A stretch of 64,000 bases of DNA from Reclinomonas americana ATCC 50394 (Eukaryota). This document shows, piece after piece, positions 235 to 62,400 of the stretch; position 1 is the stretch's first letter; each line of letters opens with the position of its first letter. Location: assembly GCA_048213135.1 (NCBI GenBank), contig PS015054.1:133812-197811 (forward strand). Reading direction: 5' to 3'. The notes beneath the pieces are model-generated. The model saw only the letters and a list, made by a program, of their open reading frames with translations. It was not told the DNA's origin and did no database searches. Position numbers and translations under genes: made by a program.

Positions 235-2779
235 TGACGACGATGACGAGGCTGGCTTGTCGACATTTGGTGAGAAGACCGTGGAGATCAACAAGTTTCG
301 CGCGCGCATTCTTGTTGGCCTCGTTGTTGTTTTCCGGTGATTGACTCTGCGCAGGCGTCTGAGTCGACTCTACAAGACACTGGCTGTGCCGGGGTTCCTG
401 AACCCACCGGCGTCATCCAGGTGCATTTTGTTGCAGTCGCATGCAGAGGCGCTCCGTGGGGCGTGACCTCACCCTCCGTTCATTGTGCAGAAAGCGCGTC
501 CCGCCGCCGAAGCTCGACAATGACGACGAGGCATCGTCGTCGCCACCGCGCAAACGTGCGGCGCGGCGTGCTAACAGTGGCGGCGCGGAAGGGTTGGCGA
601 ATGGCGACAGTGGTGACGCAGTGACACACATGGACGAGGATGGACCCAAGCAGCGTGCACGAAGGCGGCACTCGACCACTATATCCTACAAGGAGGAGAG
701 TGAGGAGGAGGAGGAGGAAATGATGGAGGACAGCAGTGAGGAGGAGGAGGAGGAAGAGGTGGAAGAAGACGAGGATGGGGACGAGGAGGAGGAAGAGGAA
801 GATGAGGAGGAGGAAGACGATGCCACCGCCACCACCACCACCACAACTGCGACAACGACCACTACCACAGCGGATGCGCCGGCGGCGGCAGCAGCCGATG
901 GAGCCACTCCCAATTGTCACACGCCGGCAAATGGACAGCCTGTGAATGCGGCGAAGAGGAGGAGGCGCAGGAAGCCAAAGACGTTGCGCTGATTGATGTC
1001 ACTCTCACCCGCCGCCGCCTACGTTTTTGGCTTACCTTTTGTGTGCGCAGCGCGGCGGTGGTGGTGTGCACGAAACAGTACGAGATCGAGGGCATCTACG
1101 CGCCTCGCCCCGGCACCGTCCGTCGTGGTCGACCGCTGGTTGTCACAGCTGCTGAATTGGTGGCGAGTGGCGAAGGCCTGCCGACGCCCATCCATCTCGG
1201 CGCCAAGTTGTTGGAGACCACCGTGGATTTCCGCTTGCCTTTCGACTACTGGGCCGAGTTGTGCAACGATTTGAGTGAGGAGGCGGTGCGCAAGAGCCGG
1301 AAGAGTGATGTGGGCCCGTCGCCGTACCAGAAGGTCAGCATCAACGACTACACTTCACGACCGAAGCGCAAGATGGCTGTTGAGGATTGGCCAGTGTGCG
1401 ACTGCGAACCGAGCAGCGGATGCGACGAGGACTGCATCAATCGACGTCTGTGTGTCGAGTGCCACCCCAAGACGTGTCCGTGTGGCGACAAGTGCACCAA
1501 TTCGCACTTCCGCAAGCGCGATTGGGCCAAGCTGGCCATTTGCAAGGTGCTGTGCAATTCTGCCCTCCGCTTCCCATGTTTTGCACTCACACGTCGACGC
1601 AGACGGAACACAAGGGCTGGGGTCTGTTTGCCAAGCAGGACATTCCGGCCGGCCAGTTCATCATCGAATACACGGGCGAAGTGATCTCGATGGACGAGTG
1701 GAAGGATCGCCTGCAAAAGTACCAGAACGAGCGCCACTGCTACTTCCTCAACATCAACAACAGCGAGGTCATTGACGCATCGCGCAAGGGCAATCTCGGC
1801 CGCTTCCTCAATCACTCGTGCGACCCCAATGCCGAGACCCAGAAGTGGGAGCTCGGTGCGGAGAGTCACATTGGCGTGTTTGCTCTCAGCGACATCAAGA
1901 GTGGCGACGAAATCTGCATCGACTACAACTTTGATCGAGTGGGCGAGAAGAAGCAGCAGTGCTTCTGCGGAACAGCCAAGTGTCGCAAGTTCATTGGACC
2001 GAGAGACGAGGCCGCACCGTTGCGTCTCTCCCCCACCTGCAGATGTGACGTGTGTTGTAGCCGAAAAAAACTGCTGGTGTGCACAGTGGCAAGGCAGGAA
2101 CAACCAAGAAAGTGCAGCGACGACGAAGTGCCGACGGCGAGGGTGCAACAGCGGCTGCATACGCGCAAGTGAGGCAGAAGCGCGCCTTGGCGAATCAAAT
2201 CAGTCAGGAGACGGAGCAGCGAGTGGCGGTGTGTGCGACCCAGCCGGCTGACTTGATGCCATGAGCAAACAACTGAATTTTTTTCTCGTCTCTTGCTTGC
2301 AGTACGCCTTGTCGACGAATGTCAAGGCTGCGGCTCTGCGGCAAAAGTACCCGGCACAGCCTGTGGAGGAGCGCCCGCCAGCGGCACCGGCGGCGCCTGC
2401 GGCAGTTGTGAGCTTCGGCAAGAAGCTGGTGCAGGAGATGACCCAATTGGGAATCAACCAGCGTGTGAAGTCCAAGTTGCAGGTGGCGCCGTCACCTGCT
2501 GGCGGCCGTGCTGCTGCTCGCGTTCGACCACGAGCTCCGTTTTTGGTGCGCAATCTGGCGAGCGTGGCAAGCAGTCGACAGCGCGTCATTGGAGAGGTGT
2601 TGGAGAGGAAGCGACAAGAAGAGGAGGATCGGCGCCTTCGTGCCGAATTCGATCCCGAGCTCATGGATCCACTGCTGCGCAAGCAGCTGGAGCGGCTGGA
2701 GCGCCAATGGACTGCCGCCGCCGCCACCGGCAAGAATGGTGGCAGTGGTAGCAGGGGCAGGTGGCGCGGTGGAAACTGA
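235..2779 (+). CDS. ASH1L: ASH1L-like histone H3K36 methyltransferase (AWS-SET-postSET), about 7 exons; true start uncertain and possibly upstream of the window
   Basis: The spliced frame contains the pre-AWS segment PIHLGAKLLETTVDFRLPFDYW, the AWS domain CDEDCINRRLCVECHPKTCPCGDKCTN, the SET motifs KGWGLFA, IDASRKGNLGRFLNHSCDPN and EICIDYNF, and post-SET CFCGTAKCRKFIG. GT-AG introns keep the frame. TGA at 2777-2779. Confidence 0.85.
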
Positions 2780-2863
2780 CGGCTGCACGCCTCGCCGTGC
2801 ATCAATCCAATCAACAACAACAACAACAATACAACCTACACACACAATTACACCCTGTATTTT

Positions 2864-5049: not shown

Positions 5050-8000
5050 ATGGCTCAGAGGTGCGCTCCTCTCTCTCCCTCTCTCCCTCTCTCCCTCTCT
5101 CCCTCTCTCCATCATACACTCACTCTTTGCAATTTGTGCACTCAGTGGCCTGTCATCGCTGCGGCTGCTGCAAAGTGCGCTCTTTGTGTGCGTGACAGCG
5201 GGATGGCCACTGCTGCTGGACGTGGGCGACATTGAGAATTTGGAGACGGAGGATGCCGATGTGGAGAATTTGGTGTACGAGGTGCATTCATACACCCTCT
5301 CTGCTCTCTTCTTTCCTTCTCTCATTCTCACACTCTTTCTGCTTCCTGGCAGGCTGTGCGACAGTTCAGTGGCTCGCTGTGCCACCTGGCATGCCTCGAT
5401 GGTGACATGTCGGTGGAGGACGTGTATCAGTTTGTCTCCGAGGCCATTTCGAAGAAACGCAAACCGCACTTCCTGTCGTCGTACACGCGTGCGAGTGGCA
5501 CTCCTCGCCCAGGTCTGTGTGTGTCTCACGCGTACCGTGTGCTTGTGTCTCTCATATTCGCCAGCAGCCAGTGCCACGGCAACAAGCGCGACAACGACGA
5601 CGACATTGCCTGCGCCGCCGTCCAATCCGCTGCCGGTGACACCGCCACCGCCACCGACGCCACCAGTTCCGCCAGGTGGCATGAATGAGCAGCGGGCTCG
5701 GTCTGCGGCTGTGGCCGCGGCAGCAGCGGCGTCGTTGTCACCCAGACGGCGCGGCAGTGTCACCGTGACCATGTCACCACCGGTGTCGGCGCGACAGCGA
5801 TCTGCACCGGCGCCTCCATTGCCTCTGCCCGAGTCGCCGGCAGCCACCGGAGCTCCCAACTTTCCGCGCTCGCCGTCGCAGGAGCTGGCACTGACCTCTC
5901 GCTTGTTGCAGTTGCACAGTTGCGTGGGTCGACTCTGTGGTCTATCACGGCTGAGTTGCTGACAGTCTGTGCAGACGAAGGCCTTCTTGATTCACCATTG
6001 GCGACGCGGCATGTCTCGTCAGGGGAGTTTGGAGGCGGCGGTGGAGGCGAGGCCAGCGAGCGGCGCAGTGGACGCGTGTCGTTTGCGCACGGTGCGGCCT
6101 CGACTGGTGTTGCCAGCAGCCGCATGCTGCAGAGCGTGGCAACGCCGGTGCCTGTTGTCATCAGTCAGCCGTTTGTGGAGCGACCGATGCGCGCACTGCT
6201 TGCCACGCAGCCGGCCGGTCGGCAGCCAAGTGTGGTAGTTACATTTGATAATGATGATAAGTGTGTGTGCATCATCGACACTCACTTACTCTCCTTCTTG
6301 ACAGCATGGAGCGACGGGAACTGGTTCGCAACGCAGTGCATCCGGGCGCTCCAGTCGTGTGGATTCACCTCGTGGTTAGTCTACAGCAGCTGCTACGCAT
6401 TTCTTTTCTGTCCTGCTCACTCTCTACTCTTCGCTCCTTCGCAGTCGCTGTGCACGGTCGCGTGTGGTCGCGCGATCCACCACGCATCGCCGGCGCCCGA
6501 CGGGATTCTTCAGTAACTGCGGCAGCGCCAGCAGCAGCAGGAGGAGCAGTGGACGTGGAGAGTCTGTTGGTGTGTACGCGATGGTTGTGTGCTGTCCACC
6601 AACAAGCGGCGGATGTGCTCATGGCAGTGCTGTTGTTGTTCTTTATGCAGAGGATCGGACCATCGCGAACCGTGCGTCACTCGGTGCTCCCTCCCTCATC
6701 GACTTCACACTTGATTCTCACAACTACGTGCACACAGACCGTCTCCATCCCGTTCGTGGGACAGCCAACGGTCGGCGGTGCGGCATCGCGCGGACAGCAG
6801 TATTCGCTGCCGGACGACTGGGCCGATGTGCGCTCCGCTGTGCATGAAAGCCGTCGTGTCGTGGATGCCGAGAATGCTTCCTCTGTGGAATCTGGTTCGC
6901 GTTTCCTTCCTTCCTTCCTGTACTCTCGTGATCGCCATCGTTGCTATTGCTCACTGCTGACATTGATGCAGTGCAAAGCGCCGAAGACCGCGATGCCATG
7001 TGCGGTGGCATGTTCAACCATGGTGTGCTACGTGGTGCCAGTGCCGATACGCGCTCGTCGCGTACTGTACAGACATCAGCTGCCGCGGGCTCCGCTTCCA
7101 TTCGCCAGTCGATTCGACAGGGACCCGTGCCGAATCGGCACCTGATGGATCCGGTGGAGCAGGTCAGCATCCGCATGCCGTCGGAGAGCCATCGTTGCGT
7201 GCCACACAATGTCATGGGCTTGAAATGACAGCACACCTCTCAATTTTTCTCCTCTTCTACGCAACAGGGAGCCAGTACTACCGAGGCATGAGTGCAGCAG
7301 CTGCTAGTGTGCTCCACGAGGAGAATGTCGAGCCGGGTCCGGGCGACTGGCAGATTGTTGTCATTGTGCTGGCCAACATTGATCGAGCTAATCTGCGCAC
7401 ACAAGATGGGCTGCTGGAGGTGGGGATGTGCATTCGTCGTCCTCCACTCTTGTTGATGCTGTTCGTGATGCCGACTCTTCCATGCGTGGCAGATGTTGGA
7501 GACTCGCCGAATCGTGTTGCCGGGTGGTCGATTGGTGGAGATTCCGCGCTACGTTGCTTTCGTGGCCACTGCGGGCGCCCAGGCATCGACATGTGTGGAC
7601 ATTAATTTGGTGCGCTTGTTGTGCTTGCCTGCGTTTGCTGCTGCTCGTCGTGTCTGACGCTGCTGCTGCTGCGCGCAGATGGCGCGCTTCACTATGAGTG
7701 TGCCGGTGTCGGATGACCTGTTGCACTTGCCGTCGATTCAGGGTTTCAGTATCGAGGTTACGTTGGGTCGCGTCTTTTCCATGTTGGGGTTTCTCTCTGT
7801 GCTCAGTTGTGGAGTGTGCAGGAATTCGAGGAGCTGCGACAACGCGCCCGCTACGTCGACGTGACACTCGACACGAGCCAGTACATGCGCGATGTGATTT
7901 CGGCCGTACGAAGCGACTTTCGCATCGTGCGTTCGTTCTCGCCGGGTACCTTGCGCCACCTGGAACGCGTAGCACGGTTCGTGCATGATCGGGTTGCTGT

Positions 8001-10000: not shown

Positions 10001-11430
10001 ATGGCTGGGCGACGAGGACGCGACGACCCTCTCTCCTCATCAACAACCACGGGCGCGTACTCTGCGCACCTCTCTGATCACATTCGCGATGCGTACCGCG
10101 AACGCCCAGCTGCGCGCGCGCCACCTCCTCCTCCACCCGTGGACAAGCAAGCCAAGTAGTTGCGCGCGACTCACACACACTCCCTCCCTCTCTGTGAGGC
10201 CATGAAGTGGTGTTGACTTGTGCACAGTTACGATGGTCCCGTGCACATGAATGCGTGGCAGCGACATCAGCAGATGATGAGTGATTACATGACTTACTAT
10301 GGAGGAGCGCGGCATGCGGCGGCACTGGCGTTGCGGGCGCCTCCGGTGGCCCCGAGCAAGACAGACGCCGATGTGCTGCGTGCAGAGTACAGATTCATCC
10401 GGACCGAGGCCGACAATGATGATGCGCGCTGGGAGAAGCGACTGGCCAAAAAGTACTACGATCGCCTCTTCAAGGAGTACTGCATCGCCGATCTGTCACG
10501 CTACAAGGAGGGGAAAGTGCGTGTGTGTTTGTGCGCACATGCAGCAAGCGAGTGAGTCTCTCGCTCTCAGTCTGACTCTCTCTGAGCATGCACTCGCAGA
10601 TCGGTCTCCGGTGGCGCACCGAAGAAGAGGTGGTCGCCGGCATCGGGCAGTTCTCGTGTGCCAACAAAAAGTGTCATGCGCGCGACGACTTGCACACTTT
10701 CGAGGTCCCATTCGCGTACCAGGAGGCGGGCGAACGCAAGTCGGCGCTGGTCAAGTGTCGTCTGTGCCCCGAGTGCAGCTTCAAGCTCAACTACCAGTCG
10801 CTGCGGCGAAAGAGGCGCGAGGCCAAGCAGCTGCGCCGGAAGACGCGAAAAGAGCGCCGGCGGAGACGACGACGGGGCGAGGAGGAAGTGCCCGACAAGA
10901 AGGAGGAAGAGGAGGAGGAGGAGGAGGTGACGCTGAGAAAGCGCAGGAAATTGGCTTCGGGTGAGAGTGCCAAGGGCGAGGAGGAGGCCGACGCGGCAGC
11001 AGCAGCCGAAGTGGAGGAGCAATCGGAGAAGAGAACCCGTCGCGCTCGCAGCGTGGACAGCAGCAGTAGCAGCGCCAGCAGTGGCGACGAGGACGAGGAT
11101 GAGGACGCTGGGCGGGGTAGGGATGCGGAGGAGCCGAGTCTGAAGAAGGAGTGGAAGAAGCAGTTGGACGAGGTGCGACGCAAGGAGGAGGTTGTGCGAC
11201 GGCAGAAAGGTTTGATGGTGTTGCGCTGCAGCTGCTGCTGTCTCTCGCTCTCCACTTCTCACCTCGCACGTCGACAGAGGAGGCCAGCGAAAAATGGAGT
11301 CGACCACCCGATATCGAGAAGGCCAAGGAGGAAGAGTGGGAGGCAAGTTTGTTTGTTTGTTTTCGCGTGGCCTTATCATCACCTCACATGGTCTCTGTCG
11401 CAGGATTACTTCTCGAGCATGTTTCCATGA
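10001..11430 (+). CDS. FRA10AC1: FRA10AC1 spliceosomal protein, 5 exons
   Basis: KTDADVLRAEYRFIR...WEKRLAKKYYDRLFKEYCIADLSRYKEGKIGLRWRTEEEVVAGIGQFSCANKKC...ALVKCRLCPECSFKLNY, with C-terminal EEEWEDYFSSMFP. Confidence 0.92.
11343..11403 (+). other. GC-AG intron (last intron of FRA10AC1)
   Basis: GAG|GCAAGT...TCGCAG|GAT. Of the donors checked, only this one gives the family-like C-terminus EEEWE-DYFSSMFP*. Confidence 0.7.
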
Positions 11431-14400: not shown

Positions 14401-17400
14401 ACTGCAGCCTGGCCATCCAATTCGACGTGCAACCGGATGATCTTGTCTCGACACTGCGTGGCAAGATCCAACACAAACGGCGTGCGGATGAGGTCCATCA
14501 ACCCCGGAACGCTGGCCGCCTGTGCACACGCGCGCGTATCCATCATCTGTGAGATACGAAGAGAAAGAGAGCTGCACAGCACTGCAATGACCGCAACTGC
14601 TTCCAACAAGCCATTGTCAGGGAACTGCGACAGGTAGCGATGCACTTGTTCGTCGGTGAATGGTGATATCTGATAGCGGAACACCACAGACGGAAGGCCC
14701 AAGCGCAGCAAGTCGCTCGTGTTGGTGCGCTCCCACTGTCGATACGTCGACGTGCGCAGCAACAGGAACGCACACGCATGCGGGACGGTGGCCAGCAGTT
14801 CGGCCAAGCTCGTGCACTCACCCATCTATCAATTATTAAGCAGCAGCGGGTGGAAGCCACGCTCCAACAGCAACACACAAACCTCATCAATGCCGTCGAG
14901 GATGAGGGCGATGCGCGTGTGCCGCGTAAACTCGGCAGGATCCGCAATGCCAGCGTGGTCGAGAATCTCCTCCACGACGCCACTAAAGGTGCCGTCGGCG
15001 CGCCGATACTTTGGCAGATCAATGTACACCGGCAGCATGTGCAGCTGGCCATAGTCGCGCCACAGACGCCGCTCCAACACGTGTCCAAAGAGGGTCTTTC
15101 CGCAACCGGCCTCGCCGAGCACCATGACCAAATTGCCCTTTTTCAGTGGCTCGGTAGAGTACTGATCGTGTTGAATGCCAAAGTGCCACATGACGAAATT
15201 GATGCAGCAGCGCATGAGGTCCTGCGGGAAGCGCTGCGTCGGCGGTGTGTCCATCTCCGTCATCACGAGTGGCACGTATCGTGCAAGTGCATACGACAGC
15301 GTCGACCACCGGCTGACACACTCCTCCCACATGATCTCCAAGTCCACGTCGTCGGGACAAGAGCGCAGCACTGCCGCCGCCAGTAATCTCTCCTCCTGCG
15401 CACAGGAGTGTGTGGTGTGGTGAGATCACCTGCTGCGAGGTGGGTGGGCGACGGCACAAAGATCACACCTCTTCTGCCAGCACGTCGGCTGGCACATCGC
15501 CTCGTACGTCCTCGGCCGGATCCAGTGCGGAGACAACAAACCCAGGAGCGTAGGCGTCGTCACCGAGCTGGTGATTCATGGCCGTGCGAAACAGTTCGCC
15601 ACCCTTCGACCGCGACTTGGAGCCGTACTGACGACGCAGCTTTTCGACGGCCTCCTTCGCTCCATGCGAACACACGGCATCGTGGTGCGACAGCACTTGC
15701 AGACCGCCAATGACCTGCGCGATCAGTCAGTTCCGCGCGGTGCTTTCTGCATCCAACTCAACAAGTCATACCTTGACGCGCGCCGGTCGCTCTCGTCCGA
15801 ATTCCTTGCTGTCCGCAAAGATCTGCACGCACAGCTCGAACAGCGGGTGGTGCACGTATGGGTCGTCAATGTTGGCCACCACATTCAGCATGCCATCGAC
15901 GGCACACGCCAAGAAAAACGGAGTGTTGATGCCACTCCGTGTTTGCTGTGCGTGATACTCGCGAACCAAACCGGCCAGTTCCAGGGCCGACTGGCGAGTC
16001 GAATGATCGTCGCCAAGCATGTGCAAGCCACGAACGAGCTCGCATTGCAGGTAGACTCGTCGCGTGTCCACGTACCAGCGCGACAGCGGCAAGTTGATGT
16101 CGACAGCGGCAGGCTCACCGGTAAACGTAAGATCACGACTCTGCGGCACGCCCATCGTGTTGCCTTCGGCCCGCAAAAAGGCCGTCAACAGCGCCCTCGA
16201 GCGACCAACGGATCGGCGAAGAGCCGATACCGACTGCTGGCTGGAGAGAATGCTCTGTGCAGCGTAGGCGGCCAGCGAACGCACATGCACCGACATGTGC
16301 TTGGCGTCGTCGCGCAGATCGACGAGCAGTCGGTACAATCGATGTGAACGCCACGCTTGCAGCTGCGCCGTGGTGGCTGCCTGCGGACTGCTGCTGCCGC
16401 CGGCATTGGAGGTTGGCATCACTCGCGGACTCGACGAGGGACTCGACGAACTGCCACTGGTGGCTGCGGCGATCGACGACGGCGGTGCATCGAGCAGACC
16501 AGCCGGAATGCCAGTGTCGACCACCACGTCGGCCAAGCGCGCAAGTGCATGCAGCAATGGCATTACTTGCGCACTGTTGCTACGAGCCTCCAGCAACTTG
16601 GTGGTGAGCTGCAACAACAACAACAATAACGCACGTGAGAGGACAACTCACACACGACAGCATGCATGAGCCACCGCACCTGGCGAACGGTTTCGCACAC
16701 CACCTGCGCCAGCTCTTGTGCCAGCTCCTGGTCAATCACGTCGCGCACCATAAAGATCTCCCACGCAGTGACCGCCACGGCCTCGGCCAGTACCACCCTG
16801 TGCCAACGAGTGAGACACACGTGTCACTGACACTGCCATACAGCTCTACGTGAACAAGCGTACCAGCTATTGGCATTGTCGGCCATCCAGCCGCCCTGCA
16901 GGCGCACCAGCACGCGGTCGGAGATCGACGAAGACGGAAGTGCCAGCAGACCCACCGACGGATGCCGGTGACCACTGATGGTGCCGTAGCCGTCTTGTCG
17001 CTGACCACCACCACCAAGGCACGTGGCGATGGCCACCAACAGTGAGGAGAAGACGTGCGTCCGCACCACGGGACATGCGGCCGCCAGCTCCGGCAACTCG
17101 TACAGGAACGCCTTCAGTGGCATGCGAGCCAACAGAGGCGCCACACCGTCGCGAATCAAGTTCACGGCCAGATTGCGCAGCTTCTCCAAGTGCGCCTGAT
17201 CGCACATAAACGTGCCAGACGGCGACTGCTCCTCCACACTCTTCAGACCGGCACTGTAGAGCACATTGGCGCCTCCGTCCAGCATGAACAGCTGCGTGTT
17301 GCGACGCTGGGGAGTCACCGGATCACCGCCACCCGACGACGCAGTGGTTCCACCCGGTGTCGCTGCTGCCGCGGCCGCTGCTGCCGCAACTGCGGCCGCC

Positions 17401-18077: not shown

Positions 18078-18299
18078 GCGAGCGGGGACGGAAGGCTGCG
18101 GCGAGACAAGAGCACGAGGGAGAGAGCGTGGACATGTCGACGTGAGGCAAACACACATACACAATGCACGCGCGCGCATTCATGTAAACAGTGGACGTCA
18201 AGCACGCACCTCTTGAGACAATGACGGAGTTGCACGGCGCAAACACGGCACCACAAAGAGACAACAAAGATGCCGCGAGCGCTGCATCTGTCACTTCCG

Positions 18300-22338: not shown

Positions 22339-22611
22339 AAATACGGATTGACGGGGACGGACTGATTTTCACAACTGACTCATTCGGCGGGACGGCAACT
22401 GACACACGAGCGAGAAATTTTGGGTTTGCAAAGGGTCGCACGATTTACTTTTCACCGACAACCACAACACCGACACCATACACAGCAGAGGAAAGCACCA
22501 ATCATCCCCACACGATGCACCGCGCAGGTCAAACGGCGGAACGAGAAGTAACAAACATGTGATGCAAGAGAAGCGGCTGGAGGCGGGGGCGGTCTACGAC
22601 CGAAAGCCGCT

Positions 22612-48920: not shown

Positions 48921-51896
48921 ATGCGACTGTCGTTGGATGATGTTGTGCCGGGTGCATCGCGGTGCGTGTGTGTGCTGGAGAGTGTGTGTGTGTGTGCCGA
49001 AGGGAGCTGATCTTCCGCGTGTGTCAGAACGATTGCCGATCAGGTGTTCACGTGCCCCGTGTGCCTCGACCTCGTGCAGGAGCCGTTTGTGTTGTGCCCG
49101 ACGCAGGTGAGGGCGGCAGTTTGTCGGTTTGTGTGCGTGGCGCTGCTCTCATGATGAATGATCTTTTTTTCACAGCAACATGTGATTTGCCGAGGTTTGC
49201 TCCGCGCCTCTCTCTCTTTCTCGCACGCTCGCTCCGTTGTAGTGCTGACACTGCCCTTGTAGATCACGTGCTGCACAGCGATGAGCAAGCGTGGGACGTG
49301 CGTGATCAGCACTCGCAGCGTCGCAACTGGTGCGGATGCGGCGTCGGTCAGGTGTCGCTGGAGGAGTCGGCTGTGCCGCCACTCATCGCCCGACAGTATG
49401 CCAACTTGCTGGTGAGGTGCCCGCGGCGCAACGAGCCGGAAGCCGGCAGTGGATGTACATTTGAGGGACCACTGCGCGAGTTTTGGAACAGTCATCGGCG
49501 ACTCGAGGATCACGATGATGGTGAGTGCTCGAGGTGGTGGTGGTGGGACTGGCGGCTCTGCTTTGGAGGGATGTGCCTGTGTTCAATCTACCACCTCTCT
49601 CTCTACGTGTGCAGTGGAGTTTGAGTGCCCGGTCTGTCAGTTGTCGTGCCCGGTGTCGCCGACGTATTGCACGTGGAGTGTGCGCGTGAATCGGGGCGCC
49701 GAGCGCGAAGAAGCACTGTCGACGCACGCGGCCTCGTGCCCGTTCCGCCAGGTGGAAGTCGATCTGCAGCAACTGCGCAGCGAGGTGCGGTGATCCTCGC
49801 TCCTGTCTCCTGCTGCTGCCTGTCTCTCTTCCTCAAAACACGATGGGTGCAGATGCACGATTTGCAAGTGCAATGGAGCGCCGCCGAGAAGGGTCACCAA
49901 GCGCGACTGACGCTGATTGAGCGGCAGCAGGCACAGCTGGCAATGATGTACGCACAACTCGATCGTGAGCAAGGCATGCGACTGTCGCTTCAACGCGAAC
50001 TGGGAGCTCTCCATCACCATCACCACCTCCACCAGCAACACCAGCAACACCAGCAGCACCAGCAACACCAGGAACAGCAACATCTGTTGCAGCAGCAGCG
50101 CGACTATCGCGGAATGGCGTATGCTCACGACGACGGCAGTGATCTGGAAGAGTGCATTGTGTGGCATCAGCACCGAGTGACAGGTGAGGAATGGAGAAGG
50201 AGAAGTCGAGAGATGAGGGAGAATTGTTTATCGAATACTTGCTGCAGCTCCACGCGGCTCCGCCATTGTGTTTGTCGCTCCAGCCACTCCGCCGCCAGCA
50301 GTTTCCGCAGCAGCAGCAGCTGCGGCGGCGGCTGCAGCAGCGGCGGCTGTTACTGCCTCGTCTCGACCATCGCCCAGGGAACGAGGGCAGTCGGCGGCGG
50401 CGGCGGCCACGGTTACCGCGGCCCTCGACACGGATCTGGAGCTGGGCATTGCTCGCAACTGGTCGCAAACACTTGCAGGCCCAAGTCGCCAGTCGCTGCG
50501 TTTCGCCCGCACCTCTGGTGCACTTATTGCTCCGCTGTTGCCGGCCGAGTGGACAGCGCTGCTCGAATCGTTGTGTTTTTTCTCGGACTGCGCCGCAGTT
50601 CACTGCTGTTGCTCACTCTGCCCCCTCATCCACGTCCACATAGTCTTCACATGCGGTCGCCATCCTCTTCCTCTTCTCCCTCGTCGTCATCAGCCTTGTC
50701 GTCGTCGTCGTCATCGTCGTCGTCGAGTTCTTCCGAAAACACCGCCCTCCGGGCCTTGCAACGGTGGTTCATTCCGGCGTCTGTTTCTGTGCGCGTGGTG
50801 GACGCACGCACTGATTTGTTTGACGGCGCACCACCGTCGACCATCGACGACATGTTTGGTCTGAAGGGAAGCGCGGAGATCTTTGAGAGTTGCGCACTTG
50901 CAGCAGCCTCGCTCGCCATATCCCCTCTGTGCTCACATTCGAGTGCAGGTCGCGGTGGACGCAGTGTGCTCGTTCCTCGCGATGCTGTTGACCTCGGGTG
51001 GGCGTTTGGCTGTCGGGCCACCGATCGCTTCTCTGTGGTGCGTCTCGTGGCACGTTGCATGCAGCATTCTGAGGAAGGGGGAGACACTCACGACATATAT
51101 TGCAGGTGGACTCGGGCGACGGATCGCTGCTGTCATCAGTGGTCCACATGCTGCTGCGCGGCGTGCACCAGCGCGCTGTAGACGACGGCGACGAGAGTGG
51201 GAGCGATCGGCAAGACGAGTGCGTTGTCGCTCTCCCACACGGCATCAATGCATTCGATCCGATGACGTGCTCTCGTGAGTACGCTCCCTCCATGCGCTCA
51301 CCCATCACCTCCGCGTGGACGCTCGTGTTTGGCGACTCCGTGCGCTCACTTCGACGCTTCGGCGAGGAGCAGTACGCCCAAGTCAGGGTTCGCAGTCACC
51401 ACCATAAGTGTCATCGACGATGACATGCTGACGCGTGCACACACACACAGAGTCTACCGCCACTGGCGCGCGAGAGTCACATGCGCCACTACTTCACCAA
51501 GCACTACTTCCAGCGTCGTGCCAGGTGCGTCAGCAGCTGCTGTCACTGAATCAATCGCTACGCACTCATCTCTCCGTCGACAGTCATCATCGTCGCGTCT
51601 TCATCGCCCTCGGCAGCGCCGCGATCCACGCCATCTTCCATCGCCTTCTCGACAGCAACCACGACAACAGCAACGATGGCGACGACGGCGACGACGATGC
51701 GGACGATCGGCGTGACATGGACACGGACGATGAGCGATCGACTTGTTCGTTGCATGGAACGGTCGTCGTGTGCGCTCCTTTCGATACGGCCGACTTTTTC
51801 CGGCAAAGCCGTGGCGCGTTGTCGCCGTCGGCAGAGCAGCTCGTCGACGCCTATCGCTTCTTTGCGCGACTTTTGTTGCCAGTGATTGAAAAATGA
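48921..51896 (+). CDS. RING plus TRAF-type zinc fingers, coiled coil, and an unassigned C-terminal domain; about 11 exons
   Basis: FTCPVCLDLVQEPFVLCPTQQHVICRDH...WCGC (RING-like), LLVRCP...GCTFEG and THAASCPF (TRAF/Sina-type fingers), followed by a Q/H-rich coiled coil. Confidence 0.7.
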
Positions 51897-52437: not shown

Positions 52438-55400
52438 ATGTCGGCGGTGGGACGCTCGCGAGGTGCGTCATGCGTCTCACTCGTCGCTCATGCACACTTT
52501 GCCTCAAAAATTTGTGTGTGTGTGTTGTCGTGCAGTTGCCAGTGGCACCACAAGCAAGCGTGCCGCACGAAAGTTGCGCCATGCACGCTCTCTCTCCACG
52601 CACGCGCACACGCACGTGTCTTGCCATTGTTGCTGACGCCCTCTCCCCCCTCCTCTCTCTCCTCTGTGACACAGTGGCGAGGCAGCACAGCAAGCCGCGC
52701 GACCGAGCCGTAACGGCGCGGCGGCGGCTGCAGCTGCCAATACGTATGAGGACGACGAGGGATTGAGTGACGAGGATGAGGGTTCACCGCAACGCAGCCC
52801 GCCACAACACGCCGTGCGGCGGCCGGGCAGCGCCACACGCCAGAACGTGGGCTCGTCGGGTGTGGGCAGCGGGTGCGTGACATGTCTCTCTCCCTGCGCG
52901 TGTGTGTGTTTCCCGCCCTCTCATTCTCGTAATTCGCAGACGCAAAGGTGCTGCTTCGGCGGCGGCGGCGTCGGCACAACGACCCGAGTCTGCATCGTCG
53001 GAGTCGCGCACACCGCGTCTGTACCGTGTGCACACGCCGGTGGCGTTCTCGGAGGAGAGCTTTGCCGACGACTTTTCGTACATCACCAGCGGCGCGGCTC
53101 ACCGACCGTCGAAGCTCGACTTTGAGACCATCAAGCCTGTCGATGGACGTGTCACGTTGAACGGCAGGAGGTGTGTGACTGTTGTCGTGTGTGCTTGTCG
53201 GGAGAGAGTGTGCTGATTTTTTGTGGACGACGTACAGCATCAAGCAGTTTGGCGAAGTCGTGCAGCTGAAGCGCGTGCTCTACCTGTACCTGCGCGACAA
53301 CCTCATCAACTCGTTCTTCGACATTGTGCTGTACCCGAAGCTCAAGATCTTGGATCTGTCGGGCAACCACATCGAGTCGTTCGACTCGTTCCCGTCGCTG
53401 CCGAATCTGCGCCAGCTGTACATGGACAGCAACTGCCTGGAGAACCTCAATGGCCTGCCGCCGCTGCGCCGCCTCGAGGTGCTCTCGCTGTCGCACAACT
53501 TTTTGCAGGACTTTGAGGTTGGTCGCTCGCCACCGGCCCCTCCCCGTCTCCTCCCACGCTAATCGACAAAAATAACAGGGCTTCCCCGACCTGCCGTCGC
53601 TGTCGGTCATCGCCTTTGGTCACAACCGCATCAAGTCGCTGCGCGGATTCCCGTTGTCGCGCAACCTGACCACGGCATTTGTTGCCGGCAACCCGATCTG
53701 CGAGCAGATGAAGCACTGGCGCATTGCGTTGATGATTGCCGCCGGCCCGTCTCTGAAGCGCATCGACGACACCGATGTCAGCGAAGAGGAGCTCGCCACC
53801 TTCCAGCAGGTTGGTCTCTCTCTCTCTCTCTCTCTCTTTCACGTCTATTTGGTCATACTCACGATGTCTGCTCCACTCGCGCAGTTGGGTGCCAAGGCAC
53901 AGTACTGCATCCGCGAGGGCATGGCACTGCCGGACGAGTTCGGCAATGAGCTGGAGGAGCAGATGACGGAGTACTTGGAGCAGGTGCAGCGTGAGCGCAC
54001 CGAGCACCGCTCGGTGTACGTCACCACGTCCCGCTTCTTGCACGATCCGCGCCCGTTCCCGCTGCCGCACAATGAGAACTTGCACCGCGAGGGCGACGAC
54101 ATTGTGTTCAACCTGGCCATGGTGCACAACAACTTGGAGGAGCGCGAGTTCTACTCGTCGCATGTGCAGAGCATCTCCATCACGTACGCCGGACAGGCGA
54201 CCAGCGTGGCGGTGTTTGGCACCTTCAACCAGTTTAGCGAGGGTCTTCCGCTCATCCGCACCGGCGACGACACCTGGGCTGCTGTGCTGTACCTGACGCC
54301 TGGCACCTACTACTACTACTTTATGGTCGACGAGGATCAGCGCACGCTGGACTACGGCCGTGAGTCGATGCGCCTGCCGGAGGAGCTGGCCGTCAATGGT
54401 GACCGCCCCGCGTGCCACAAGATCGACGTCGAGTTCATTGCGGAGACCATGCAAGGTACGCCATTTTTTCTCTTTTGTTTGCATACACACAGCCAGGGCC
54501 TTCTCCTCATCGACGTATGACAGGCGACCAATCGTTTGGTGCTGAGCGCGGTCTCGGCTACTTTGCCTTTGAGTGGTACCGCTCGGACGACGAGCTGCAG
54601 TTTGTGCGCATTGCCGACTGCGAGAGCTCGCCGGTGTACACGTTCCGCCACGAGGACATTGGTCGCTGGATCATGGGCAAGTGCGTTCCGTTTGATGTGG
54701 AAGGCCGCCCACACAATGCGGCGATTGCCATTTCGCGTCGTGTGGACCCAGGTCAGTCTCACAGTGCCGGCGGCATGTATGTATGTTGCATGATTGCTAA
54801 CAGCACCCTTTCCCCCTCTTTGTGTGTGTAGGTCTCCCCGAGTGCATCTCGGTGCGCGTGGACAACCTGTCGGTCGTTGACCCGGCCACTGGCTTCTCGT
54901 ACAACAAGCGCCGCACGGCGTCTGACGAGCCGCGCGAGGGTGACACTGTTGGTGTCTTCTCCGAGTACTTTGGTGGCCTGGAGGGCGACTCGCTGATCCG
55001 CTGGTACCGCATGGAGCACGACGGCTCGGTGAGGCTTTGTGTGTGGAATATAGCTCTTTCTTGTTTGTCGACGTCGCCACTCACACTTGCGCAGGAGACA
55101 CTGGTGTCGGAGGAGAGTGACCACGTGCTGATGTTTGACGACGTGGGCCACCGCTACCGCGTCGAGTTCATCCCCGTGCGCGACGACGGCACCCACGGAG
55201 CACCGCGCGACACGTCGTTCTTTGTTGGCCCGGCTGCACCGCGCATCCAGAACCTCCAGCTTGTCGGCGACTTGGTCGAGAACTCGGAGATTGCGCTGCA
55301 GTACGACTACTTTGGCGGTGTGGAGGGCGAGAGTCTGTTCTGGTGGTACCGCCAGAAGCAGATTAATGCCGGCGACACCAATGGTGGATACGAGTGCCGC

Positions 55401-58400
55401 GCCTTTGGCCGCTCGGCTCGCTACGCTCTCACTGTCGACGATGTGGGCTGCCGCATCATGGCTGTCTGCAAGCCGCAGAACAGTGAAGGTTTGCTTCGTG
55501 TTTGTGGATATATATATATGTTGCGTGGTGGATTCCTTGTTCCTCACGCCCTCATTTTTTGCTTTTTCACAGGCATGTACGGTCCGATTTGCATGTGCGT
55601 GAGCGAGGTGCCGGTGGCACCCGACATGCCGGTGCTGCAAGACCTGCAGATGCTCGGCGAGTGCATGGAGGGCCGCTCTCTCTGGATGGAGTACGTCTAC
55701 AAGGGTGGTCGCGAGGGCAACACTCGCTTCCAGTGGTGCCACGTGGAGAATGGCGGTGCCGACTGGGTGCCGATTGAGGGTGCCACCGATCGGGTGCGTC
55801 TCCGTCAGTCTCTTCCTTCCCCTGTCCGCTGCGTCTGCTCATGCTCTCTTTCTTCCTTTCCTCCGCCGCCCGCCAGACGTACACACCGACCGCGAGCGAC
55901 GTCAACAAGGTGATGGGTGTGCGTGTGGTCGCCGTCCGTGACGACGGTGCGCAGGGCGACGCCATGTACGGCGTCTCGTCGGAGATCCCGGTGTCGGGTG
56001 GTGTGCCGGAGGTGGTCTCGATGAACGTCGAGGGCGAGTGGGTGGAGGGCGCCACTGTGCGCATCTTGCACACGTACCGCGGCGGCAACGAGGGCAACTC
56101 GATGTACCGCTGGGGACGCATGGTTCGTCGCCGTCATATGAGTGTGAGCGCACAGCGATGGACTGGCGCCTCATTCTCTCTTGTCTTCGCAGCGCTTGGT
56201 GCCGGGTGCGCAGGAGGTGGTCGACCCGATTCCGAGTGTCGGCGACTTCTCACCCGACAACTACTTGTACCGCCTCACACTCGAGGATGTCGGCAAGTCG
56301 ATCACTGTCGAGTGCAAGCCGGTGCGCGAGGATGGTGCCACGGGCACCATCATGGCCGTGGAGAGCCCAGTGCCAGTGCAGCCGGGCGAGCCGTCCATCC
56401 GCAACTTGGCTATCTCTGGCGAGTTGAAGGAGGGCAGCGAGCTGTCGTGCTCCTACAACTACTGGGGCGGCTACGAGGGCAACTCCAAGTTCCAGTGGAA
56501 GAGAGTTGAGTGCTCTCTCTCTTTGTGGTGTGCATGCTTCTTTGTGGTCAGTTGCTGACGACTCTTGCGCGTCACACACACAGATCAGGGGCGGCCGTGA
56601 GCAGAGCATTGGCGGTGCCACTCGTCGCAAGTACAAGATCACCTCGGAGGATGCCGACGCCATTCTGGCCGTGTCTGTGTGCCCAGTGCGCTCTGACGGC
56701 CGTGAGGGCGAGTGGGCGACTGCACAGCTTGACGCCAGCGTGAAGATCGAGGCGGCACCACCATCGGGCTCCATTGTGTACCTGAACGACGCCGCTCGCG
56801 AGGGTGACATGCTGCAGCCGGAGACCGATTACGAGGGCGGTGCGGAGGGTCGCCACATTTTCCAGTGGTTCCGTCGCACCGGTGCTGGCGGCAACCCCGT
56901 GCGTGTGGCCGACACCAAGGACTACCGTGTCACCACTGACGACGTTGGCGCCGACCTCATCTTCCAGTACACCCCAGTGCGCAGCGACGGTCGTCGCGGC
57001 CAGATGGTGTCGGAGACCATTCGCAACATTGAGCCTTGTTGCGTCTTGTCGCGGAATGGGATTGTTTCTGTGTTTAGCAAGGAGGACGCTGAACTCTGTC
57101 TTGTTTGCACACAGCACACCCGGTTATCCACGACCTGCGCGTGGTGGGCGACACATCAGAAGGCGGTATTCTCCGCGCCCAAGCCTCATATCATGGTGGT
57201 GAGTCGCAGCTCCACATTTCCGCCGTTGTCTTTTTATCAATTGTTCACTCTTGTGCTGCTGCTACAGGCGTGGAGAAGAACTCGACAATCAGGTGGTTCC
57301 GCGTCGAGGGCTCTCGACGGACGTTGGTCGGCGAAGGCCGGTGAGTTGATGTGCAGTGACCACACTCTATTTTTCCGTCAATGACTGTCGTTCTCACTGA
57401 ACCACACAGCGAGTACCATGTGGTACTGGACGATTTGGGCACCACCATCGAGTGCGAGTACACTCCGCGGAGAAGCGACGGCAAGACTGGCGAGCCCAAG
57501 GTTTGCGAGTGTGTGTGTGACTTGGGCGGCGTGTTTTGTCCACAGCACTCACGATGCCTGCCACGCAGCGCACCTCCATTGGTCCGATTGCTGCGCCGCA
57601 GCCTGTTGCCTCTCAGGTGCGCCTCGCCGGCCAAGCGGCCGAGGATGGTGTGCTGAATGGCTCAGCGGTGTATTCGGGTGGTGAGTACGTGGGTGTCTGC
57701 GGTTCGTGTTCATGTGTGATGCTGACTAACGCTATTTATGCGGAACGAACGACAGGTCGCGAGGGACGCAGCCTGCACAAGTGGTACCGTGTGGGTCGCA
57801 ACAATGCACGTACCGAGGTGCAGGGCAACGGCAACTCGTACGCCATTCAGTTGCAAGACATTGGCAACCGCATGATGTACGAGTTCACTCCGGTGAGGAG
57901 CGATGGCGTGGCTGGCGAGCCTGTTGCGGTGCTGTCCGACGTGATTCGCGCTGGACCACCGCGGATTCAGAATGTGCGCCTGACCACGGCTGGTGGCGCT
58001 GCATCGTCGAGTGAGGTACGTTTTTGAGGAACTCTATACGTATGTGCGCTTGCGTGTGTGTGCTAAACAAAACATGCTGTGTTTATCAGTTGATTGTCGG
58101 CGCTGTCGGTCGTGCGTTGACTGTGGTCGGCGACTTTGTCGGTGGCGCACCGGGTCAGCACCAGTACACATGGAAGCGCTCGGTCGATGGCCGGCGGTTT
58201 GATGCGATTCGCGGTGCGACAGCCAACACGTACACACCGACTGCCGATGACGTCAACTGCCTCATCTCGGCCACGATTGTGCCGCGCAACTCGGAGAATG
58301 TGTCTGGCGAGGCCGTCTCCAGCAACGCTGTGTACATCAACATTGATGCCCGCACTCGCGATGCGATTCGCACTGCCATTGTTGAGGGCACCACGATGCT

Positions 58401-59045: not shown

Positions 59046-59357
59046 ACAGAGGCGCAGACCATGTCTGCTGCTTGGCACGTGCTGTGTGTCTGGAATGGTG
59101 CTTTGGTCTGTGTGTGTGTGTGCGTGCTCTTTGTCGCCATGTTTTGTTTTCTGAGGGGCCGTCGCCTGCGACAACCTCTCTTCTCTCTCCCTCTTTTGCA
59201 AGAAAATTTGAGCGGGTATCTCAGTCGCTCGTCTCCCTTTTGTCTCTTTTTTCCTGGCGATGTCAGTACAGAATCGTGCGTTTTATCACCACTGCTCTCT
59301 CTACTTGCACGACTGCACTTCATTGTCGCCATTTTGCGCGCGCACGCGAGTGTCGAA

Positions 59358-59404
59358 TCAAAACACAGGTCGGCCACCACTTGCCCCTCCTCCGGCGTAG
59401 TATC

Positions 59405-59438
<34 letters not shown>

Positions 59439-62400
59439 TTGTTGCGCAACTGTCATCGAAGAGGATGCGGGGCGGTGATGTTGCTGAAAGTATTGCGGTG
59501 GCGGATCTTGAGGCGGTGCTGCAGCGTAGTATTGTGAAGCAGCCACATCCGCTGTGGACCACTGTGGCTGTTGCTGGACGTACTGATACTGTGGCGGTGG
59601 TGGATGGTGCTGGTGCTGGTGGTGCTGTTGTTGCTGGTGATGATGGTGCAGTTGTTGCTGCTGCTGCTGCTGTTGTTGTTGCTGCTGTTGTTGCTGTTGA
59701 TCGGCAGCTGCCAAGAGGCCAACCAGATGCTTAATGGCCGCCACACAATCAGTGTGCGCCGCTGTCTGCGTCGGATCCGAGGGCGCGGGCACCGTGCACA
59801 ACGTGTGCAACATGCGCAGCACTCGCTCCGGGCTACCCAACAGAGATAACATGCACACTCAGTAGCTGGTGGGCAGAGCGACATGTGGCATGCGACGAGT
59901 CACGCACCGCAGGTCGTGCAGCAGCGCGGCGTAAACAGTCGGCGGAGTGACGGCACACAGCAGCGACATGGTCAGCAGGGCCGACGAGCATGTTTTCCAG
60001 TCGAATTCGGGCGACATGGTGAGGAGCGAGTGGAAGGCCTCGATTAGAGTGCCGAGGTGGCCAGTGAGAATGCTGATGAGGATGCACGACGAGCTGTACC
60101 ATTCGTGCATCCGCGGTGGGTCGATCTGCGTCAGTCGGAGCTGCTCGTCGTAGCCACGGCGAACCAGAGCGTGCATAACGGCGGCTCCAAACTGTCGACA
60201 AGAGTCAGAAGAAGAGCGCGGGGGGTGGCGACACGACGCGCGGGCACTCAACTCGTCGCTGCAAGACGTAGTTGACGGTGTCTGCATTGGCCCAGGACAG
60301 CACCCGCTGCATAACCAGCACCACTGGTTCCATCTCCAGTTGACCGATGCGCATCACAATGGTCGAGGCCAGTTCGTCGACTGCACTCGCGGCCGTCTGT
60401 TGCAACTGTGGGAGAAGAAGGAGGTGTATGAGATGATGTTGCACAGCCCTCTTTTGCAAAAAGGACGCAACGGAAGCCGAGTAGGCCACAGTCGGCAGCA
60501 TGGAGAAGATACTCTCCACCACGTACATGGACGACGTGGTAACCTGCGCACTGACGGGTGGTGATCCCGCGGGAACCATGACAGGTAGGCCAGAGACGAG
60601 AGACTTGAGCAGCCGGGCACCCTTGGGGATGGTCAACAGTCCACAAAACACGCCCGGTTTGCTTCATGCACACACAACACGTGAGCAGCCGCGACACTGC
60701 GATGCTTGCCACGGACAACGTACTGACCGGCAAATGTCAGCGAGGCACTCTTGCATGAGATGGCCACGGTCCTCCAGCATGGCATCGCTGGCTCACCGCG
60801 CATGAGATCGACACGACGACATACCACGTCAACACAGCGCAGCAGCTCACCGCATTGCAGGGACGACATGGGTGATGGCCGTGTCGATCAAGTGCACATC
60901 GATGAGGCGACTCATGCACTCCTCAATCACCGCCAGCAGTGCCATTCGCGACACTTCCGGACCTTCCTCCTCCGCTGCATCGTCGCGCAGTGGTGAGTAT
61001 TTTTAGGGAAAAGGGGAAGAAGCGAGACAATGCACAGGGAGCGCAACGCTTCACGGCATAGGTCGGGTGAGGAATGTCAATGACCATGCGCGGTGCCTTG
61101 GCCGTCTGCGCCGACACGCGACCGAACATACGCATGCCTGCGACACTGCAAGGTCGGCGACAAGAATACATATCCTGCTGCATTGAATGCACACGTACCG
61201 ACTTCCTTGTCGGATGATTGCGATCCAGAACCGCCAATCGAAGCCGGCGACTCCATGAACAGGCGCGCACACGCAGTCGGTGGAAACACACGCATGTTGC
61301 GTGGATCTGCGACGACCTCTAACTATTGAGTGCACGCCACAGTGGGAAACGGGGCAGGTGAAGACACGAGAGAGACCTCTCCGTGCTGTGACCTCAATGT
61401 CGTAGAACTGATCGAGGTACAGGTCGCGACCAGGCGCGGGATGCGACTGTGAGATGATGGAATCGATCTCCTCCAGTGTCATGAGCGACGGAAGTCCGCC
61501 AAGTCGCCGCACAGCATTCTGTGTCTCCTCGCTGATGGACTTTTCCGGCTGCAGTCGACACAACACACAAGTGAGCGAGTATGCACAAGGTGGCACCCGG
61601 AGGGGAAGCAACAGGTGGCAGACCATGAACTGCTTGGTGCCTTTCTTTTCTGGCGCCGGACCCCTGCCTCCGCTGCCTTGCTGTTGTTGCTGTGGTTGCT
61701 GCTGCTGCTGTGGTGGCTGTGGTGGTTGTGGTGGTGGAATGGGTTGAGGTGGTTGTTGCTGTTGTTGTTGTTGTTGTTGTGTTGGCTGTGGGTGTTGTTG
61801 TGGGGGCTGATGTGGTTGCACGTGTCCGTGCTGCTGGGGGGTGCCTGCGCCAGGAATGGCGATGCCTGTTGTTGCTGATGTGTGTGCCTGAGGGAAGAAG
61901 CGCGCCGACTGCTGCTGGTGCTGCTGAGATTGTTGTTGTGCTTGCTGCTGCTGCTGCAGCGAACCGCTGCGTTGCGGGCGCGGAGACACCTTCTGCATTC
62001 GCGGTCAGCGAAAGTGCACAGAGAAAAACACACCAACAGCGCGTGTACCATTTCGCGCTGCATACGGATCAGTTCAGCGTGGCTGATACGCGCCTCCGGC
62101 TGCAGGGGCGAGTGATTGTGTACACTCTGCGTGCCGCTGCCTGGCGGCGGCAGCGTAACCAGCGGCTGGCCGAGGAACTGTGGGCGGCGTCATGTGAGCA
62201 GCAAGCAAATGCACTCCCAGACATGCACGTGGTTCTCACCTGCGGGCTCTGCATCGCCATCGGCGCGACCATGACGGGCACCGGGGACGGTGGACTACGT
62301 GATGGCACGCCCATGAGCGGCAACGGAGGACCCTGCGCCTGCGACTGTGCGCCCCGCGCAATCGACGACTCCAGGTCGGCGGCCGACACCATCATGGTCG

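Follow-up and report, generated by a model that had tools for sequence, protein, structure and literature searches.

Can U1 small nuclear RNA (snRNA) read the same donor word in two positions within one genome? This question is raised by a 64,000-nt stretch of the Reclinomonas americana ATCC 50394 assembly (GCA_048213135.1, contig PS015054.1, positions 133,812 to 197,811 of the forward strand; hereafter the window, with all coordinates counted from its first base). Many introns of this window appear to begin with GTTGCG, as if one T had been added to the usual GTGCG donor. In well-studied organisms U1 pairing and the position of cleavage are locked together, and shifted or bulged registers are exceptional. 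A first-pass annotation of the window had listed 31 GTTGCG donors and had put the class at about 30 of roughly 190 introns. Judged by the introns modelled here, the GTTGCG donor class is real, abundant and rule-bound. We propose, with a probability of about 0.6, that a single U1-bound word is used in two registers, and that the GTTGCG form would be the +1-shifted one.

Introns were inferred from the genomic sequence of the window alone (G+C 59.6%). The gene finder combined a three-periodic Markov coding model, seeded with Pfam-positive open frames and then self-trained, with an intron composition model, an acceptor weight matrix and strict frame bookkeeping. In the GT-only catalogue the donor model required GT and nothing else, so that the donor motif cannot bias the intron set; after convergence this catalogue held 22 gene models and 173 introns. 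The refined catalogue was built in a further round, for which the donor model was made first-order (neighbour-dependent). It comprised 190 introns in 21 gene models; 30 of these introns started with GTTGCG, there were about 9 introns per gene model, and the median intron length was 70 nt. Short introns are those of 40-130 nt (n=131 in the GT-only set and n=169 in the refined set).

All 31 listed positions begin with GTTGCG on the strand given for them. The hexamer is not enriched in bulk: both strands together hold 87 copies, with 74-79 expected under Markov models of orders 1, 3 and 4, and the claim therefore hinges on the copies being real intron starts. The GT-only model recovered 19 of the 31 claimed sites with no prior knowledge of them, and no donor hexamer was more frequent in its catalogue than GTTGCG, with 21 of 173 introns (GTGCGT had 14). 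Thus, 21 of the 87 copies were used as donors, against a base rate of 173 in 8763 GT sites (~2%; binomial p = 3.5e-17). Sister hexamers were rarely donors (GTTGCA 2/65, GTTGCC 1/59, GTTGCT 4/71). Moreover, within predicted gene spans GTTGCGT occurs 25 times in the sense and 4 times in the antisense orientation. In a check set beforehand, a position-independent donor model predicted 1.19 GTTGCG donors among the 131 GT-only short introns, and 19 were observed (p = 2e-17); the same test on the refined set gave 1.41 expected and 29 observed.

The proportion first proposed for the class was reproduced by the refined model at 30 of 190, although the refined donor step is self-reinforcing and this agreement is concordance only. 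The refined GTTGCG set consists of 28 of the 31 claimed sites together with 40899 (+) and 60471 (-). GTTGCG accounts for 12% (21/173, GT-only) to 16% (30/190, refined) of the modelled introns, and the wider shifted type, GTT-NN-GY, for 21% (27/131) to 25% (42/169) of the short ones; these percentages are approximate because the catalogue is that of a self-trained model with known errors. Note that three GTTGCGC copies, at 11220 (+), 37435 (+) and 32805 (-), fall within modelled introns at distances of 10, 6 and 15 nt from the intron start, respectively. The copies at 37435 and 32805 share the phase of the modelled donor and could be the true donors, and so the GTTGCG class may slightly exceed the count.

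The class follows a rule that involves the last base of the exon. Among the GT-only short introns, G preceded 0 of 19 GTTGCG donors and 69 of 112 others (Fisher p = 1.2e-7), in line with the association with the -1 base that had been claimed; in the refined set the figures were 1 of 29 and 110 of 140. The only one of the 31 listed sites that follows an exon-final G is 36159, as had been noted, and the common unshifted donor is indeed G/GUGCGY, with C at +4 and G at +5. The same contrast appears when the donors are grouped by pattern: in the GT-only short introns 44 of the 57 GTNNGY donors follow G, against 2 of the 27 GTT-NN-GY donors. The extra base is only T. The shifted pattern with A, C or G as its third base occurred in 1, 2 and 3 cases (GT-only), and donor use was 21/87 for GTTGCG, 0/18 for GTAGCG, 0/85 for GTCGCG and 1/146 for GTGGCG.

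The downstream end of the word is displaced as well. All 30 refined GTTGCG donors have a pyrimidine at +7, compared with 27 of 57 non-donor copies (Fisher p = 1.2e-7); for the GT-only donors the corresponding counts were 20 of 21 and 37 of 66 (p = 0.0006). This +7 pyrimidine mirrors the +6 pyrimidine of normal donors. Other shifted forms that had been reported (GTTGAGT, GTTTCGY and GTTACGT) are present too, as the shifted partners of G/GTGAGT, G/GTTCGY and G/GTACGT. The shifted class is centred on a GC core (19 of 27 donors, vs 12 of 57 unshifted; p = 2e-5), and in 25 of the 27 a C stands at the position that faces U1 nucleotide 5. After non-G exon ends, shifted donors outnumber canonical ones by 25 to 13 (GT-only) and by 37 to 11 (refined). 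Donors with T at +3 and G at +5 (GTTTGT, GTTGGT, GTTCGT, GTTTGC) mostly follow G and act as normal-register donors, so T at +3 alone does not mark the shifted class. As modelled in this window, the rule is a general one that sets G/GTNNGY against H/GTTNNGY. The proposal of a mainstream donor class with a +1 shift (G moved from +5 to +6, Y from +6 to +7, -1G lost, the extra base only T) held in all sequence tests run; the U1 register behind it is put forward conditionally.

In other respects the GTTGCG introns are ordinary U2-type introns: they have GT..AG ends and a branch box at a set distance, and their removal restores the frame or the protein. Their median length is 68 nt, that of the introns with canonical donors 68.5 nt. 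The branch box CT[CGA]A[CT] was found in 17 of 29 GTTGCG introns and in 44 of 60 canonical-donor introns, with a median distance from the branch A to the 3' splice site of 21 and 20 nt, respectively, and GCAG and ACAG acceptors are common to both donor classes. Every one of the 30 modelled GTTGCG introns has AG at its 3' end (17 GCAG, 11 ACAG, 1 CCAG and 1 TTAG). U12-type introns carry an extended donor of the RTATCCTT type. A U12-type reading was rejected here, the donors being GTTGCGY with no conservation past +7.

Spliced-junction homology tests were made exon by exon, and they support five GTTGCG junctions (25975, 18447, 18527, 18940 and 57038); three more are compatible with homology. The junction at 25975, which had been singled out as fixed by a conserved RRM, proved to be so: the upstream exon matches positions 1-24 of the RRM_1 profile and the downstream exon positions 25-69, and these are the only GT..AG boundaries that produce this join. 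In the methyltransferase gene, the alignment with P0121, a transcript-derived homologue 48% identical to the query exon, is ungapped over the 18447 and 18527 joins. At 18940 the join reads HVP/YTWGDELP against HFPYTWGNELP in P0121, with both flanks matching. The 57038 join in the AIR9-like gene reproduces, with equal spacing, the linker motif of the other A9 repeat boundaries. Other junctions served as controls: an ordinary donor at 10517 splits the Fra10Ac1 profile at 53/54, and the RACK1 junctions 23744, 23573 and 22865 are ungapped against transcript-like relatives that are 80-89% identical. The best RACK1 relatives in the protein database are 89% and 80% identical, and that of Balamuthia 69%.

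Other junctions are less tightly bound by their relatives. The exons that flank 46967 match positions 4-50 and 58-97 of TIGR01691, and exon order, frame and total length agree with this profile and with relatives. This join sits in a variable insertion of enolase-phosphatase and gives a cap region of normal length compared with relatives, and neither TIGR01691 nor these relatives could pin the junction. An exhaustive representative search found Nup160 relatives only 26-41% identical. The joins at 28026 and 31195 show no gross gaps against these distant proteins, but because of such low identity the alignments are too loose to pin the junctions. The kinesin-gene exons that flank 34079 gave no Pfam match even at E up to 5, and a search of metagenome contigs with the AIR9 exon produced 258 pattern matches and no relative.

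The listed sites were also audited one by one. Of the 31 listed donors the refined model kept 28, and at 22 of these the intron is frame-necessary, meaning that its length is not divisible by 3 or that read-through meets a stop. No other GT..AG pair would produce an identical mRNA at any of the 28, and for 14 of them an in-phase GT is absent within 24 nt. The six kept sites whose introns are in-frame and stop-free (26329, 36159, 50889, 20741, 42361 and 45582) are less secure, because only the motif and the coding score support them. As for the three listed sites that were not kept, 34079 is plausible, since read-through stops after two codons and the 61-nt intron to 34139 stays in frame. In contrast, 14597 and 35005 are probably not donors, because both read GTTGCGG, with G at +7, and have in-phase alternative donors nearby.

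How could one U1 serve both classes? We propose that a single recognition word, G-K-U-N-N-G-Y and mostly GKUGCGY, would be bound in ordinary short U2-type introns. With K=G, the intron would begin at the second base of the word, leaving an exon-final G followed by GUNNGY. With K=U, it would begin at the first base, so that a non-G exon end would be followed by GUUNNGY. The seven-base words GGUGCGU and GUUGCGU differ at the second base only. In the shifted register the intron +1G would lie opposite U1 C9, the usual place of the exon -1G, and +2U would lie unpaired opposite C8, while +3U, +4, +5, +6G and +7Y would take over the usual pairing positions of +2 to +6. Cleavage would stay in front of whichever GU the word contains. 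The donors of the GTTGCG class display what this register calls for: the downstream consensus is displaced by one base, there is no dependence on -1G, and U stands at +3. Three features speak for the shift rather than a bulge at +2/+3: -1G is lost, U is required at +3, and G and Y are displaced to +6 and +7.

Duplex energies, computed with pseudouridine treated as uridine, bear on the kind of U1 that would be needed. With an ACGUAC U1 variant, a +4C-compensated end of the Mastigamoeba type from which the host U1 may differ, the GTTGCG donors reached a mean of -5.0 kcal/mol. The best duplex with this variant was the shifted one (+1G with C9) at 14 of 29 GTTGCG sites and core-only pairing at 12 of 29. 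The C that faces U1 nucleotide 5 in 25 of 27 shifted donors and the bias of the class towards a GC core hint that the host U1 pairs with that C; as far as donor composition can tell, the U1 of this organism probably pairs with a C at the position facing its nucleotide 5.

Several observations weigh against the shifted register, or against the catalogue from which it was derived. With the standard U1 5' end the mean duplex is -0.7 kcal/mol for GTTGCG (n=29) vs -6.4 for G/GTGCG (n=24), and the GTTGCG duplex is negligible and inconsistent in register. Where the exon does not end in G, GTGCG would form a stronger duplex than GTTGCG, both with the standard U1 (-2.3 vs -0.7 kcal/mol) and with the ACGUAC variant (-7.7 vs -5.0). 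The avoidance of -1G beyond background is modest, with G before 1 of 30 donors and before 11 of 57 non-donor copies (p = 0.013). The shifted register also predicts an A at -1, facing U10, and A was found there at 7 of 19 (GT-only) and 8 of 29 (refined) donors. An Rfam search of the 64-kb window returned 0 matches, and therefore no U1 or U6 lies there. As to the catalogue, 19 of the 190 refined introns are longer than 130 nt, its known errors include merged genes, a missed terminal RACK1 exon and a hidden 39-nt exon, and the junctions at GTTGCG sites are predicted here from genomic sequence and protein homology. Despite its weaker duplex the shifted form is the commoner one after non-G ends, and a G opposite C9 seems to be favoured by a factor other than nearest-neighbour pairing. 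This could be U1C or a LUC7-type protein, a variant U1 position 8, or a second U1. The first-pass suggestion of a variant U1 or U6 snRNA, or of altered recognition at the level of U1C, LUC7 or Prp8, would thus be one possibility.

Other explanations of the GTTGCG class start from the same donors. U1 might pair in its normal register, +1G with C8 and +2U with A7, with one U bulged at +2/+3. For GUUGCGU such a bulge gives as many pairs as the shift does, the bulge +2/+3 and +3 registers of human sites have been demonstrated by experiment according to the parts of PMC4856993 considered here, and, because +1G is fixed at the active site, U6 would have to fit the extra base anyway. A bulge would leave C9 free for an exon -1G, yet -1G falls from 44/57 to 2/27, and bulges of other +3 bases are unused (GTAGCG 0/18, GTCGCG 0/85, GTGGCG 1/146), so this register seems to us quite improbable. 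It is also unlikely that the class depends on a dedicated or co-evolved U1, or on a second U1 paralogue, fully complementary to GUUGCGU (position 8 pairing with U and position 5 with C), in which case two snRNAs, or a single tolerant position, would underlie the two classes. GTTGCG is the commonest single donor hexamer, textbook U1 forms almost no duplex with it, and the C facing U1 nucleotide 5 in 25/27 shifted donors would suit such a U1. According to the parts of bioRxiv 10.1101/2022.06.08.495308 used for comparison, the U1 5' end is a co-evolved one in Entamoeba (AACAAAC) and in Mastigamoeba (ACGUAC), and Physarum reportedly carries standard U1 alongside modified variants. However, a fully matched U1 alone would not explain why GTTGCG avoids -1G, and the same parts of bioRxiv 10.1101/2022.06.08.495308 give Thecamonas and the Mamiellales GUGCG-type donors with a standard U1.

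It is very unlikely that the class is an annotation artefact, in which GTTGCG would simply be common in 60% GC DNA and the true donor would be another GT. The lack of bulk enrichment (87 copies vs ~75 expected) would fit an artefact, as would the in-phase alternative GT, at least one within 24 nt, at 14 of the 28 kept sites, the 6 of 28 that are in-frame and stop-free, and the two claimed sites that look wrong. Nevertheless, a donor-agnostic model picks GTTGCG 12 times above the base rate and does not do so for sister hexamers, GTTGCGT has a sense to antisense bias of 25 to 4, and the +7 pyrimidine separates donors from non-donor copies. Moreover, homology supports five junctions, and at the 28 sites the modelled mRNA cannot be obtained from any other GT..AG pair. 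The introns might also be copies of an inserted mobile element (an introner) that brings its own donor, since they share a fixed word of 6-7 nt at their start. The pairwise comparison of introns within the window contradicts this reading, to which we give next to no credence: pairs of the 30 trimmed GTTGCG introns share at best an 11-nt chance match with a bit score of 22, while the other 142 short introns match each other better (up to 38). Base conservation ends at +7, and with no sequence in common beyond it the GTTGCG introns are not mobile-element copies.

Reportedly, Roca and Krainer found in 2009 that human atypical 5' splice sites can be read by U1 in a +1-shifted register. In the parts of PMC4856993 and PMC9311317 considered here, these sites are rare and resemble the present class in that all pairs between the 5' splice site and U1 are moved by one position, cleavage stays at the GU, G is at +6 and U at +3, and there is no reliance on -1G. 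They differ in being rare among ~200,000 sites, whereas the shifted type makes up 21-25% of short introns here, and in having an AAG core instead of GCG. The human register was shown by suppressor U1 experiments, according to those parts, whereas here it is inferred from sequence. All validated non-canonical human U1 registers together make up ~1.5% of 201,541 sites, among which the bulge +2/+3 and +3 registers are predicted at 68 and 51 sites (the same parts of PMC4856993). The latter two, for which PMC4856993 cites Roca et al. 2012, likewise place one additional nucleotide between the GU and the consensus that follows it; unlike the donors described here, where -1G is lost and the extra base is only U, they keep the canonical pairing of -1G and +1G.

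Among protists, GUGCG-type donors with +4C are described, in the parts of bioRxiv 10.1101/2022.06.08.495308 at hand, for Mastigamoeba balamuthi (U1 ACGUAC) and for Thecamonas trahens and the Mamiellales (standard U1). The normal class of the window is alike in its G/GUGCGY donors, its +4C and its GC-rich DNA, but those parts of the preprint mention no second, shifted class for Mastigamoeba, Thecamonas or the Mamiellales. The Mastigamoeba genome has a G+C content of 60.7% and 3.4 introns per gene with a mean of 137 bp (PMC8136499); G+C is thus similar, compared with ~9 introns per gene of ~70 nt here. In Entamoeba, the same parts of the preprint describe GUUUGU donors with a co-evolved U1, AACAAAC. 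The U at +3 is shared, and an snRNA changed to match is the feature of Entamoeba. In contrast to the shifted donors, however, Entamoeba keeps +5G and hence the normal register, and the GUUUGU-type donors of the window follow G and belong to the normal class. A full-text literature search, which covered the hexamer and shifted or non-canonical registers in protists, brought up no account of a shifted donor class in common use. The individual introns and the two doubtful donors are listed in Table 1.

Table 1. GTTGCG introns and claimed GTTGCG donors in the window. Base, last base of the preceding exon; Model, catalogue in which the intron was found (both, GT-only and refined); Frame, consequence of reading through the intron.
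Feature	Coordinates	Strand	Length (nt)	Base	Model	Frame	Remarks
Intron GTTGCGC	983..1050	+	68	C	both	frame-necessary	
Intron GTTGCGT	2019..2086	+	68	C	both	frame-necessary	directly past SET/post-SET region; no in-phase alternative GT
Intron GTTGCGT	5919..5974	+	56	A	both	frame-necessary	
Intron GTTGCGT	7194..7267	+	74	C	both	frame-necessary	
Intron GTTGCGC	10159..10227	+	69	A	both	in-frame length, stop on read-through	Fra10Ac1 gene
Claimed donor GTTGCGG, doubtful	14591..14597	-			neither		in-phase GT 15 nt downstream picked; G at +7
Intron GTTGCGT	18447..18501	+	55	C	refined	frame-necessary	Methyltransf_16-like gene; ungapped join vs P0121
Intron GTTGCGT	18527..18591	+	65	T	refined	frame-necessary	Methyltransf_16-like gene; 25-nt exon before; ungapped join vs P0121
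Intron GTTGCGT	18940..19000	+	61	T	refined	frame-necessary	Methyltransf_16-like gene; both flanks match P0121
Intron GTTGCGT as modelled	20583..20741	-	159	A	both	in-frame, stop-free	unusually long; less secure
Intron GTTGCGT	20881..20944	-	64	T	refined	frame-necessary	GT-only model picked GT 3 nt upstream
Intron GTTGCGT	21682..21737	-	56	T	refined	frame-necessary	
Intron GTTGCGT	25975..26039	+	65	C	both	frame-necessary	RRM of TRA2-like gene; RRM_1 24/25 split
Intron GTTGCGT	26329..26409	+	81	T	both	in-frame, stop-free	Gly/Arg-rich tail; less secure
Intron GTTGCGT	27953..28026	-	74	A	both	frame-necessary	Nup160-like gene
Intron GTTGCGT	28921..28987	-	67	T	both	frame-necessary	Nup160-like gene; no in-phase alternative
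Intron GTTGCGT	29464..29539	-	76	T	refined	frame-necessary	
Intron GTTGCGT	31135..31195	-	61	C	both	frame-necessary	Nup160-like gene; compatible with relative P0128
Intron GTTGCGT	32176..32248	-	73	T	refined	frame-necessary	GT-only model picked GT 5 nt downstream and another acceptor
Probable intron GTTGCGT	34079..34139	+	61	T	neither		degenerate kinesin-like gene
Claimed donor GTTGCGG, doubtful	35005..35011	+			neither		in-phase GTs 18-21 nt downstream picked; G at +7
Intron GTTGCGT	35744..35822	+	79	A	both	frame-necessary	coiled-coil gene; TTAG acceptor
Intron GTTGCGT	36159..36233	+	75	G	refined	in-frame, stop-free	sole one after G; less secure
Intron GTTGCGT	36483..36548	+	66	A	both	stop on read-through	
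Intron GTTGCGC	40899..40969	+	71	T	refined		absent from first-pass list
Intron GTTGCGT	42278..42361	-	84	T	both	in-frame, stop-free	Na/Ca-exchanger-like gene, near C-terminus; less secure
Intron GTTGCGC	45502..45582	-	81	T	both	in-frame, stop-free	less secure
Intron GTTGCGC	46910..46967	-	58	A	both	frame-necessary	enolase-phosphatase E1 gene; consistent, not pinned
Intron GTTGCGC	50889..50948	+	60	A	both	in-frame, stop-free	less secure
Intron GTTGCGC	52573..52674	+	102	A	refined	stop on read-through	
Intron GTTGCGT	57038..57114	+	77	T	both	frame-necessary	between A9 repeats of AIR9-like gene; linker motif
Intron GTTGCGT	60406..60471	-	66	C	both		absent from first-pass list
Intron GTTGCGC	60975..61047	-	73	C	both	frame-necessary	

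Two genes illustrate how short exons can escape the models. RACK1 (22220-22632, -) ends in ...GIIR, after which a short last exon (VW...) is needed; the model missed that exon and runs on into the following gene instead. In the enolase-phosphatase E1 gene, a 39-nt exon encoding AQKLLFRHSVFGD (46464-46502, -), with a CCAG acceptor before it and a GTGAGT donor after it, lies inside a single modelled intron of 168 nt. Its relatives have a segment that matches this exon, and very short exons are therefore present and easily missed. The same gene model contains a 323-residue exon (43800-45240, -) with runs of His, Ser, Arg and Asp and repeats of the HSHSHSHG type, which stands between the enolase-phosphatase and the Na/Ca-exchanger-like membrane parts. 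The fusion of these parts is probably a modelling error.

In a long gene at 52400-59850 (+), leucine-rich repeats occur together with a carbohydrate-binding module of the AMPK type and at least eight AIR9 A9 repeats. The AIR9 family is known mainly from plants and trypanosomatids. The seventh A9 repeat is short by ~12 residues, so the exon near 57166-57267 is probably mis-modelled. The gene model at 11580-18183 (-), of 1856 residues, has a weak match to a NACHT-like nucleoside triphosphatase together with pentapeptide repeats and WD40 repeats, a STAND-type architecture that is unusual for a eukaryote. Finally, in the kinesin-like gene at 33045-38202 (+) only the last 53 profile positions of Pfam Kinesin match (E = 0.0025); the motor looks degenerate, with an unrecognisable P-loop region, and is followed by a long coiled coil.

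What would a common shifted donor class mean for this lineage? A step beyond the single word read in two registers, and one that we take only tentatively and at a little less than even odds, is that the lineage uses the shifted register as a regular second donor code, one GKUNNGY word being cleaved at either position with the last base of the exon deciding. This would probably involve a re-tuned U1 5' end, with a G facing the +4/+5 C and perhaps a position 8 that is tolerant or variant, or a U1C- or LUC7-type protein that ranks the C9 pair above the C8 pair. Shifted and bulged registers trouble splice-site predictors and the interpretation of variants, and gene finders with position-independent donor models will mis-annotate such genomes, as seen from the 1.2 GTTGCG donors expected against the 19 to 30 modelled here. 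If the lineage does use such a second code, U1 register and cleavage site, whose coupling is fixed in textbook splicing, would be less tightly coupled throughout the genome of a free-living eukaryote. With a fifth to a quarter of its introns shifted, as set by the last base of the exon, such a genome would offer a natural system for asking how a cleavage site is selected once U1 has left, how U6 accommodates one additional base, and how snRNAs and splice signals co-evolve.

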